A stretch of DNA of 64,000 nucleotides, taken from a virus (lineage: Duplodnaviria > Caudoviricetes). A program made the position numbers and the translations under genes. Below, piece after piece: positions 14,385 through 17,377 of the stretch. Numbering within the stretch: the first letter of the stretch is position 1; the number at the start of each line of letters is the position of its first letter. Location: positions 209,302 to 273,301 of IMG/VR virus record IMGVR_UViG_3300011242_000002, one strand, 5' to 3'. The notes below the pieces were generated by a model. That model was not told the DNA's origin. It searched no databases and saw only the letters and a program-made list of their open reading frames with translations.

Positions 14385-14795
14385 ATGACCAAGGTCTATA
14401 GCAAGATAGTGGCAATCGCCAGTGACTTTGCCGGTGACTTCTCATTTCCCGCGTTACGAGAATGCCTACCGCCCCATACCCGTATCACGTCACTGTACAA
14501 CTTTGCCACCGCAACCCAGTTTGCTGAAGACGTGAAGTCGGCAATGAAACGCAGCGATGTCATCATCGTTGATACCAGCGAACACACCCTGCGGTTCCTG
14601 AAGCTATTGGAAATCCCCTATCAGCTCATCTATCTTGGACAGTGTGTGACCGACTGCGAGCAGCGACACATTAACCACTGTCGGTTGCAGGCCAACTGTA
14701 TTCACACCGAGCTTAAATCGCCTGACGAGTTTAAGCGTCTGGTATGGGAGTATCGCGCGGACGTTGGTCTCTCTGTGGCTTTACCATCGGCATAA
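14385..14795 (+). CDS. Hypothetical protein (136 aa)
   Basis: GAGGTGGAG RBS; stop codon lies in the CGGCATAA motif. Confidence 0.7.
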   Translation: MTKVYSKIVAIASDFAGDFSFPALRECLPPHTRITSLYNFATATQFAEDVKSAMKRSDVIIVDTSEHTLRFLKLLEIPYQLIYLGQCVTDCEQRHINHCRLQANCIHTELKSPDEFKRLVWEYRADVGLSVALPSA

Positions 14796-14846
14796 AAGCA
14801 CAAGGGCTTCTGCTCCCACAACGGGAGCAGAAGCACCTTTATGCCG
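14788..14846. repeat. CGGCATAA-hairpin-TTATGCCG element (probable bidirectional terminator)
   Basis: Stem gcttctgctccc/gggagcagaagc; both convergent genes end in the GCA-TAA of the flanks. Confidence 0.8.
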
Positions 14847-15213
14847 GTTTATTCGGATTAATGGCCTTTAGGGTTTTCTCGAGTTCAGACATCCCTTCCA
14901 GCTTTTTCGCATCGTTCTTGTTGCCGTAGCGAACCGCCCGTTCTTTGATCATCTGCTGCTTAGCGTGGGTGTAGGTCATCCAGACGTCAAGCGTGATTCC
15001 CGTCAGCTCGTAAATCCGGGCTTCCAGGTATTCATCCACGTAGCCGCCAAACCCGCTGACCAGCAGCGGGTCTTCCTGCTCGACTTGGCTAACCAACGAG
15101 AAAGGGGACGGATCGGTGTCGTGATCAATGAACCCGTAGGTGTCATCGTACAGTTCCAATAACCGCAGCTGCGCCACCTCAGGGTCACCTGACATGAACT
15201 TCGGGTCATTCAA
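14839..15213 (-). CDS. phiKZ gp76-like ORF; possibly expressed as a -1 frameshift extension of the upstream gene
   Basis: Only a TTG or internal ATG start with no clear RBS; frame stays open back through the T7 run at 15321-15327. Confidence 0.6.
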   Translation of the reverse strand: MNDPKFMSGDPEVAQLRLLELYDDTYGFIDHDTDPSPFSLVSQVEQEDPLLVSGFGGYVDEYLEARIYELTGITLDVWMTYTHAKQQMIKERAVRYGNKNDAKKLEGMSELEKTLKAINPNKPA

Positions 15214-15269
15214 GGCTTCTTCCCAGGCACCGCTGCGATCATGGTACGCGTTACCGAAATCCGGATGGA

Positions 15270-16919
15270 TTAGATGTCGGCGCTCGCGATAGAACTGTTG
15301 AGCGTATTCGCTAAGAGGGTAAAAAAAGCGCGGTTCATGTTGATCGGCGTGTAGTTCGGGAACTTGTCATTCACCGCCGGCTGACGACCTTGACAGGCCG
15401 GGCACTTGTAGCGTGGCAGCGCAATGATACCGATCGTCATGTCGTTCATAAAGGTGTTGATCTCTTTATAGAACGCTTCTTTAAAGGTTTCGTCTTTGCT
15501 GAGCTCGGCCAGCTGGCTGTAGATGTCTTCATCACCTTCGATAAAGCCGTCGACTTCGCCGTTGCTGTCCAGGTAGTCAATACGACGCACCCAGTGCGCA
15601 TAGTTACGCAGCGCAGATAATGCCGCCTGTTTGTTGATGTAGTTCACGCGCTCTTCACGGGTCAACTCATCTTTAAACGACAGAGTCACCGCGTCTTCAA
15701 TCGCATCGAGCCAGGCGGTACCGGCCTGCAGGTTTTGTTCAACCGATGGTGCACCAAACACCACGCGCACGCCAGGTGTAATGTTCACCACGTTATCACG
15801 GATCGCGGAGAAGTATTCCTGATACGCCAATACCGAGTTCACGTCGTGGTTGCTTTGCTTGCGCATATGACCACGCTGAGCTTCCGTCAGACGGGCGTTG
15901 TCGATAATCATCAGGCGGTTAATGTTGACACGCTGAACTTCCACGTGACCACATTTCGCCGGATCGACCTGACAGGCCTGCGCCAGGTTGTAGCCGGAGC
16001 GGAAACGGGCTGCCATGTAATAACCGACCATCAGCGGGATGTCCTGGATTTTCACCAGTGAGGTCAGTTCTTTCTTGTTGACCTTGCCCATAGAGGTATT
16101 GACGATCATCCCTGAGAGCAGATCCCACAGATGGCGCAGCACGATCACTTCGGAGTTGGAGAACACCAGACCGGCGGTACGACGACCCAGCACGGACTTG
16201 GCCGCCAGCACGCGGGTGTGGAAGTTGAGCATCTCATCTTCCCCGGCCACCAGGATGGTTGCCCAGATACCGGTGTGCGGCATAGGGAAGGTAATGAAGT
16301 CACCGACCTTCAGCTCCTGGCGCACACGGATCATGGCTTCACGTCCGGTTAGACGCGCACCCTTGCTGTGGTTGCTGTTGTTGATGCCTGGACGATAGCC
16401 ACCCTTCACGCGACCGTCGATCAGGATCCCCTGCAACCACTGACTGTTTTCGCGCATGACGGTGTCGGTCAGGCCGTTCTGGTAGCTCATGTGGTTGATC
16501 GACTGCTGGGTCGCAGCCAGCCACTCCATCGCCGCCGGGGCCCCTTTGAGACGGATCATCTCACGGAACAGTTCGGTTTCTGCTGAATCCCCGCGACCTT
16601 CGTTAATCCCGCCGACCAGATCCGCAATGGTCATCTGATCACCGTGGGTAACGTGCAGCAAATCAACCAGCTCGCTATACGGCTCGATCACTTTGCTGAT
16701 GCGCGGATCTTCAAACAGGTTATCGAGCTGAATATCGTCCTGCACTGGCAGGGTGTCATCAACGTCGACATCCACCTGTGCGTGACCGGGAACATTGCAT
16801 GGCTGCCCCATCATACCTGCAGGGCCCGTGTCGCCCTTTAGCATGGTGTCGGATGAGGTTGGGGTATTTAGGCTGGCGAGATCAACGCTCATCTCGTCTT
16901 CAGGTAATACGTGCTCCAT
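15270..16919 (-). CDS. phiKZ gp77-like core protein with Cys motifs; candidate tail/baseplate assembly chaperone
   Basis: ACQVDPAKCGH and KCPACQG motifs; position upstream of the vRNAP beta' fragment block. Confidence 0.6.
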   Translation of the reverse strand: MEHVLPEDEMSVDLASLNTPTSSDTMLKGDTGPAGMMGQPCNVPGHAQVDVDVDDTLPVQDDIQLDNLFEDPRISKVIEPYSELVDLLHVTHGDQMTIADLVGGINEGRGDSAETELFREMIRLKGAPAAMEWLAATQQSINHMSYQNGLTDTVMRENSQWLQGILIDGRVKGGYRPGINNSNHSKGARLTGREAMIRVRQELKVGDFITFPMPHTGIWATILVAGEDEMLNFHTRVLAAKSVLGRRTAGLVFSNSEVIVLRHLWDLLSGMIVNTSMGKVNKKELTSLVKIQDIPLMVGYYMAARFRSGYNLAQACQVDPAKCGHVEVQRVNINRLMIIDNARLTEAQRGHMRKQSNHDVNSVLAYQEYFSAIRDNVVNITPGVRVVFGAPSVEQNLQAGTAWLDAIEDAVTLSFKDELTREERVNYINKQAALSALRNYAHWVRRIDYLDSNGEVDGFIEGDEDIYSQLAELSKDETFKEAFYKEINTFMNDMTIGIIALPRYKCPACQGRQPAVNDKFPNYTPINMNRAFFTLLANTLNSSIASADI

Positions 16920-17377
16920 TATACGGATCCTTGTGGTTGGTTGGTCTGCTGGGCGGCAACGGCCGCTGCGTGTGCCAGTTCGTTAGAGTTGAACAGCGGC
17001 ACAAAGTAATCGTTATACAGCTGCAGCATTTCGCTTTGGATCACCACGTACTCTTCGTGGATCGACAGGAAGTTGGCAATGTCAGCTACCGTCATGGCGG
17101 TGCCGGTGCGACCTTCATGCTTCGGATGAATGTCGATCAGCTTTTGCTCTGCGCTTTGTACACAGGTCAGCAACGCATTCAGCCAGCCATCCAGCAGCTG
17201 TGGGTTCGGATGAAAACGAATGATGTTGCTGTTGACCGCCAGCAGGCACTGGTTGCGGTACTGGGTCAACAGATCAATCGTATAGTGTCTCACACCGGTT
17301 TCCAGGTATTCCCAACTGGAGTCTGCCGGCTGTGTTTCCTCTGGACGTGCCAGCGGATAAAGAGGTGTATTGGTCAT
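16919..17377 (-). CDS. Hypothetical protein (gp78-like position)
   Basis: TAATG coupling to the next gene. Confidence 0.7.
   Translation of the reverse strand: MTNTPLYPLARPEETQPADSSWEYLETGVRHYTIDLLTQYRNQCLLAVNSNIIRFHPNPQLLDGWLNALLTCVQSAEQKLIDIHPKHEGRTGTAMTVADIANFLSIHEEYVVIQSEMLQLYNDYFVPLFNSNELAHAAAVAAQQTNQPQGSV

Follow-up and report, generated by a model that had tools for sequence, protein, structure and literature searches.

Genes and probable slip site in the window

The DNA described here, referred to below as the window, is the 64,000-nucleotide (nt) stretch from position 209,302 to position 273,301 of the IMG/VR virus record IMGVR_UViG_3300011242_000002. The parent record is complete, at 273,301 bp with terminal repeats, and megablast returned no near-identical phage DNA. 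On the minus strand of the window lie the gene of a 549-amino-acid (aa) protein (15270..16919, -), a homolog of gp77 of phage phiKZ, and, downstream of it, an open reading frame (ORF) that the ORF finder lists only from the TTG at 15213, as an ORF of 124 aa (14839-15213). An earlier note on this DNA proposed that the two are joined by a programmed -1 ribosomal frameshift giving products of 549 and about 693 aa, and the comparative evidence presented below strongly supports that proposal.

The 549-aa gene was assigned from the ORF list, from tblastn, which found relatives in 219 phage records, all of jumbo phages and with PHIKZ077 among them, and from a match of its product to phrog_4585 (function unknown) at E 1e-113. 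The homologs Goslar gp081, phiKZ gp077, and RAY gp267 constitute core gene cg18 of the Chimalliviridae, tabulated as “hypothetical protein” (PMC10299810 supplement). The label “gp77” in the papers on Goslar, PCH45, and PhiPA3 refers to other proteins, since numbering is done phage by phage. A HMMER search against 1.84 billion cluster representatives gave 1320 clusters at E <= 0.001.

Near its 3' end the mRNA of the 549-aa gene reads ...AAC CGC GCU UUU UUU ACC CUC..., which contains the slippery heptamer U UUU UUU (15321..15327, -), i.e., GCU UUU UUU in the zero frame, coding for F532-F533. The zero-frame UAA follows 16 codons past the heptamer. After a slip the -1 frame reads FFYPLSEY...AWEEA, passes through the TTG of ORF 14839-15213, and runs on to the stop at 14839-14841. 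This -1-frame extension (14839..15321, -) comprises 160 open codons, from 15321 down to 14842, and was delimited from the translation, the alignment of relatives, and a match to phrog_13274 that begins at extension residue 1; with 533 codons before it and 160 in it, the predicted fusion is 693 aa long. The last 16 zero-frame codons overlap the first 17 codons of the extension (15270..15320, -), and both frames are conserved across this dual-coding segment. Upstream, the -1 frame is shut by a stop 13 codons (39 nt) 5' of the heptamer, with no ATG, GTG, or TTG in between, and none of the motifs AGGA, GGAG, GAGG, or AAGG is present upstream of TTG 15213 or of the next three candidate starts in the window. 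The heptamer, the frame that leads through the TTG, its closure about 40 nt upstream, and the lack of a convincing ribosome-binding site had all been described in the earlier note, and each is borne out by the sequence. The extension very probably forms the C-terminal domain of the 693-aa product, for which the predicted tryptic trans-frame junction peptide in this phage is AFFYPLSEYAQQFYR.

Conservation of the heptamer and the frame relation

Thirty-one loci were analyzed in full: that of the window, those of 18 annotated GenBank phages, and those of 12 metagenome contigs whose encoded proteins are 40-71% identical to the window's. The GenBank phages are pEa_SNUABM_48, SA002, AH06, Desertfox, phiKZ, PhiPA3, 201phi2-1, Goslar, SPN3US, Proteus phage 10, Bacillus phage AgentSmith, four Vibrio phages, two Ralstonia phages, and Xanthomonas LucasX, with hosts in the genera Erwinia, Salmonella, Pseudomonas, Escherichia, Proteus, Vibrio, Ralstonia, Xanthomonas, and Bacillus. 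All 31 loci have N UUU UUN in the zero-frame register, 8-21 codons 5' of the stop, and past this site every locus has 153-172 open codons in the -1 frame. The heptamer is U UUU UUU in 24 loci, U UUU UUC in SPN3US and the four Vibrio phages, U UUU UUA in AgentSmith, and G UUU UUU in PhiPA3. The codon before the site is variable (GCU, GUU, ACU, CUU, UAU, AUU, or UGU) and ends in U in 30 of the 31, so that the heptamer is completed by a U in the third position of the codon for a variable residue.

Among 150 diverse representative proteins, the top 150 of the HMMER clusters, six lack the FF motif encoded by the site. DNA of relatives of three of these six was examined, at nine loci, and the sites found there were U UUU UUG in one clade, U UUU UUC in another, and CUU UUU AUU in a marine clade. 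The ~165-codon -1 frame, with a stop just 5' of the site, is retained in all nine, which together with the 31 of 31 above puts the -1 arrangement in 40 of 40 loci; conservation of the heptamer and of the -1 overlap among homologs was the first check that the earlier note had suggested. The marine clade (L038-L044, IMG/VR contigs) has only five U's and a junction reading ...LFYYP..., followed by its start-less ~165-codon -1 frame, and it offers a natural test case for minimum slipperiness.

Elsewhere in the gene Phe is mostly encoded by UUC, with counts of 0 UUU to 18 UUC in RSL2, 2 to 19 in PhiPA3, and 6 to 9 in the window, whereas the site in the 31 loci is always UUU UUN. Being in register in every relative examined, and against the local Phe codon preference, the heptamer is conserved far beyond chance. 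The arrangement as a whole is conserved across the nucleus-forming jumbo-phage family and beyond, to a Bacillus phage.

Coding evidence for the -1 frame

The extension might instead be an independent small gene, translated from TTG 15213 or ATG 15195 or by reinitiation, with the open -1 stretch before it a matter of accident. It is true that gene callers and GenBank annotators have entered the small ORF on its own in every record, and that the TTG and ATG are both present in the window, but the starts that have been called are inconsistent and vary widely, giving products of 72-136 aa even among close relatives. In 29 of the 31 loci there is no -1-frame ATG, GTG, or TTG between the upstream stop and the heptamer, and the first start past the slip ranges from codon 9 to codon 88, almost never with a Shine-Dalgarno (SD) motif. 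The extension aligns across the 31 loci from its first residues, and in many phages the motifs RHLIHxDFG, DRSxAWExALxDPKF, and LELYDDTYG come before the earliest codon at which translation could begin, a codon that in AH06, phiKZ, and AgentSmith is not reached until position 86-88 of the extension, past conserved residues. In all 40 loci, moreover, the -1 frame is open back to the heptamer.

The start-less stretch also has the substitution pattern of a coding region. In the stretch that runs from the zero-frame stop to the first start found in the window, substitutions among 13 close relatives fall on -1-frame codon positions 1, 2, and 3 in the numbers 200, 280, and 733, which is the signature of translated sequence. 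In the same relatives the density of substitutions in the 48-nt overlap is 16.5 per nt, compared to 24.3 upstream and 22.5 downstream, a drop of the kind expected for dual coding, and purifying selection acts on both parts of the gene. Given these observations, we regard independent initiation of a small gene as very improbable.

No fused, single-ORF form of the protein was found among the 150 representatives or among 18 close database proteins, nor by word-based searches or among the “longer” matches of the extension, and a joined coding sequence at this gene is marked in none of the 18 GenBank annotation tables. The 150 representatives are 438-645 aa long and end no more than 34 residues past the motif region, and in 144 of them FF lies 7-34 residues from the C terminus. 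These counts bear on a further explanation, namely, that the true sequence has eight T's and a single 693-aa ORF which a sequencing or assembly error has broken, or that a split gene is decaying. Homopolymers are error prone, and the virus record to which the window belongs was derived from a metagenome, but the same frame break is found in 40 independent assemblies, including isolate genomes from different platforms, and in 150 of 150 representative proteins, and it is kept with runs of T5 to T8; decay is at odds with the purifying selection on both parts. An error in the homopolymer, which the earlier note had raised against its own proposal, was excluded on this evidence, and the explanation as a whole retains a negligible probability. 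At the level of sequence, three things can be taken as established: the layout, its conservation throughout the family, and the coding pattern of the -1 stretch that lacks a start.

Proposed mechanism

We consider it likely that a programmed -1 ribosomal frameshift at the gp77-family gene yields both the 549-aa and the 693-aa product. Most ribosomes would pass GCU UUU UUU ACC and terminate 16 codons farther on, making the 549-aa protein, whose last 20 residues would form a C-terminal helix. A fraction would slip back one base with Phe-tRNAs on UUU UUU, both of which could re-pair perfectly with U UUU UU, and would then read 160 codons in the -1 frame, making a protein of 693 aa that consists of residues 1-533 and a mostly helical 160-residue domain. 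Because slipped ribosomes would read through into it, the small downstream “gene” would be the 3' part of the long form and not an independent gene. The two isoforms may act jointly in a fixed proportion, like the frameshift-derived chaperone pairs of other phages. The ribosomal nature of the slip, its efficiency, and the function of the protein are what we infer here.

Search for a stimulatory element

Several observations weigh against this reading. Because FF is a conserved feature of the protein in its own right, conservation of the U-run is partly a protein-level effect, an objection that the codon choice and the preceding U described above address. The only site in one clade, CUU UUU A, is a poor canonical heptamer. 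The 100 nt past the heptamer in the window fold no better than shuffled sequences (z = -0.12), and RNAalifold gave no consensus structure for 18 sequences (-1.25 kcal/mol), its sole long-range pairing, between the U-run and a purine-rich codon stretch, being regarded as incidental. A notably stable fold was seen at just two of 15 other loci, those of RP12 (z -5.5) and PhiPA3 (z -2.5). The earlier note had pointed to short stems past the site: the agcg/cgct stem is indeed present in the minimum free energy fold of the window, but, as the shuffles and the 18 relatives indicate, the stems are neither unusually stable nor part of a shared structure. No SD-like motif is visible 5' of the site in the alignment of close relatives. 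Since no conserved stimulator was found, the efficiency of frameshifting may be low or may rest on something unseen.

Ralstonia phage RP12 (L017:2392-2491) has two very stable hairpins that begin ~25 nt past the heptamer (-46 kcal/mol, z = -5.5), and nothing comparable was seen in the other phages examined, apart from the weaker PhiPA3 signal. The RP12 hairpins may be a lineage-specific frameshift stimulator.

The same fusion protein would result if the host polymerase or a phage multisubunit RNA polymerase added one U on the T-run, so that a subset of the mRNA encoded the 693-aa form. The homopolymeric site, with T7 in the window and T8 in 10 of the 31 loci, the failure to find a stimulatory RNA structure, and the unusual polymerases used by these phages are all in keeping with such transcriptional slippage. 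The run falls to T6 in the four Vibrio phages and PhiPA3, however, and to T5 in the marine clade, and the conserved feature is an in-register U UUU UUN rather than the length of the run. Known cases of transcriptional slippage in bacteria use runs of ~9, and because runs of T5-T6 are short by that measure, they count against slippage by the polymerase, which we consider unlikely. It is similarly doubtful that the slip is produced or tuned by phage machinery in a broader sense, i.e., either by polymerase slippage on the T-run or by ribosome-binding phage proteins that set its rate. Such ribosome-binding proteins would explain the lack of a conserved cis-acting stimulator, and a slip tuned by the phage in either manner would give nucleus-forming phages a novel means of controlling the isoform ratio of a core assembly factor.

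Predicted fold of the gp77-family protein

An AlphaFold model of the 549-aa protein, built with a 150-sequence alignment, has a mean predicted local distance difference test score (pLDDT) of 88 and a predicted template modeling score (pTM) of 0.86. Residues 1-52 are predicted to be disordered (pLDDT < 50); the N-terminal ~50 residues vary greatly in length among relatives, and N termini of the SPN3US type are ~100 residues longer. The zero-frame tail forms the C-terminal helix of the model, residues 528-547, which begins at FF, and the long form would be predicted to exchange this helix for the extension. Four cysteines, C316 and C323 (CxxxxxxC) and C506 and C509 (CPxC), show little or no variation among 150 members and may form a zinc site near the C-terminal frameshift region. 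A CPxC motif is also found in T4 gp26 and gp51.

The PDB gave no match by sequence to the gp77-family protein or the extension and none by fold to the 549-aa model, some proteasome-like fold matches having been discarded as insignificant (E > 0.07, template modeling [TM] score < 0.2). In a Foldseek search of BFVD the family itself came first and was followed by T4-like models named as baseplate hub assembly protein, chaperone, or hub subunit, with E values from 5.7e-5 to 0.1 and target TM scores of 0.45-0.59 over 310-365 columns; both sides of these comparisons are predicted models. Neighboring clusters in the ESM Atlas have PF12322 in 14-24% of their members, with TM scores of 0.47-0.48 to the 14% cluster. 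T4 gp26 and gp51 score 215 and 177 bits against PF12322, whereas 19 diverse members of the gp77 family have no match to it at E <= 1, and Pfam was blank for the window's protein as well. The hhalign probability for the gp77 family against T4 gp26 is 22%, and given this value and the missing Pfam match, we describe the link to T4 gp26 and gp51 as a resemblance at the level of fold and not as membership. Structural comparison, another check that the earlier note had proposed, thus gave a match of moderate strength to the fold of the T4 gp26/gp51 family and none to that of lambda G or P2 E.

The extension modeled alone is helical, and its low confidence (pLDDT 60) was the reason for excluding it from the fold searches. 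It has no detectable similarity to Pfam or PDB entries or to P2 gpE/E'. The Atlas had pointed from the extension to P2 GpE (score 0.86, with only 117 shared features), a lead that was rejected on an hhalign probability of 0.1-0.2%.

As to function, we infer that the gp77-family product is an assembly factor that is not part of the virion and has a fold related to that of T4 gp26 and gp51. In the record of 201phi2-1, gp136 is not flagged as identified by mass spectrometry, while the neighboring gp138 is flagged.

Comparison with known systems

The type of event proposed here is well known: a -1 frameshift by which a phage morphogenesis factor is also made with an extended C terminus. As in the E/E+E' genes of phage P2 and G/GT of lambda, the slip would take place on a heptamer rich in U and close to the 3' end of a morphogenesis gene, with a short form and a C-terminally extended one as products of a single mRNA. 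The -1 site annotated in RefSeq for P2 E/E+E' is GGU UUU UUG, i.e., U UUU UUG, a heptamer of the same type as that described here and identical to that of one atypical gp77 clade. The family and the genomic position are different. No homology to P2 gpE/E' was detected, hhalign giving the low probability quoted above for the extension, and there was no Pfam match to a tail chaperone. The gp77-family protein has 549 aa compared to ~90 for gpE, and the extension has 160 aa compared to ~50. Unlike lambda G/GT and P2 E, the gp77-family gene does not have the tail tube gene on one side and the tape measure gene on the other; its neighbors are homologs of the genes for gp78 and gp79 and a gene for a subunit of the virion RNA polymerase. 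The suggestion in the earlier note that the locus encodes a G/GT-like chaperone pair is consequently not supported as a statement of membership, on Pfam, hhalign, and gene position alike. Since the fold resembles that of the T4 gp26/gp51 chaperones and not that of lambda G or P2 E, “G/GT-like” holds as an analogy only, although, in functional terms, comparison with an assembly factor that exists in two forms through frameshifting would be reasonable.

T4 gp26 and gp51 are hub assembly chaperones (PMC3004832). The C terminus of T4 gp26, AVPxKCPECG...EFFELL-stop, aligns weakly with AIPxYxCPxC...FFTLL of the gp77 family; the product of T4 gene 26 (L032:3803-4429) ends ...AVPIKCPECGKTHAHVIRGLKEFFELL-stop. 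The gp77-family protein differs in being twice as large and in not reaching the threshold of PF12322. In T4 gp26 the FF codons are UUC UUU, the stop follows three codons later, and there is no -1 extension, and these codons would count in favor of recoding in the gp77 family if T4 gp26 is a true outgroup. T4 gene 26 likewise yields two products, RefSeq annotating an internally initiated gp26' in addition to gp26, and these arise by a different route: T4 uses two paralogous genes and an internal start where the gp77 family would use a frameshift.

Two other frameshifts are useful for comparison. In gene 10A/10B of phage T7, a -1 frameshift on G GUU UUC near the stop of a late structural gene gives a minor C-terminally extended isoform, and there is no classical strong stimulator immediately downstream. 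The T7 10B product is a capsid protein with an extension of ~50 aa, and the long form is dispensable; the gp77-family extension, by contrast, is a 160-residue domain conserved across a whole phage family. In E. coli dnaX, a -1 slip on A AAA AAG gives the two isoforms tau and gamma in a fixed ratio, and it depends on an SD-like element 5' of the site and a hairpin 3' of it. The dnaX shift truncates its protein, whereas that at the gp77-family gene would extend it, and neither of the dnaX stimulators was found here.

Neighboring genes and probable transcript end

Upstream of the gp77 homolog, in the position of phiKZ gp78, is a gene for a protein of 152 aa (16919..17377, -), assigned from the ORF list, the sequence, and conserved synteny. 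Its stop overlaps the ATG of the gp77 homolog (TAATG, window 16917-16921), an overlap on the strength of which the two genes are probably translationally coupled and part of a common operon. The order gp78-gp77-extension is kept in all annotated relatives, and by that token the three probably form one coupled unit. A terminator-like hairpin with a 13-bp stem and a T-rich tail (14806..14834, -) begins 5 nt past the stop of the extension and probably ends the transcription unit. A convergent plus-strand ORF of 136 aa (14385-14795, +) stops ~10 nt from the foot of the hairpin at 14806, and the hairpin may serve as a bidirectional terminator.

Implications for the nucleus-forming jumbo phages

No mention of a frameshift in the gp77 family was found in the literature, a search that did not cover subscription journals. 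If the frameshift is real, every genome of the Chimalliviridae encodes an unannotated protein of ~690 aa, and the small ORFs downstream of the gp77-family gene (phiKZ gp076.4, PhiPA3 gp073, 201phi2-1 gp135, Goslar gp082, and others) would be truncated misannotations of its C-terminal domain. Corrections would then be needed to the core-gene counts of these phages, to their knockout and transposon maps, and to the databases used for proteomic searches. The site seems to be a clean natural example of a U UUU UUN frameshift that operates with no conserved stimulator in hosts ranging from Pseudomonas to Bacillus. The fold link to T4 gp26 and gp51 provides a testable function, assembly of the baseplate hub, and it also suggests that the use of recoding to produce two forms of an assembly factor arose outside the classical tail-chaperone family.

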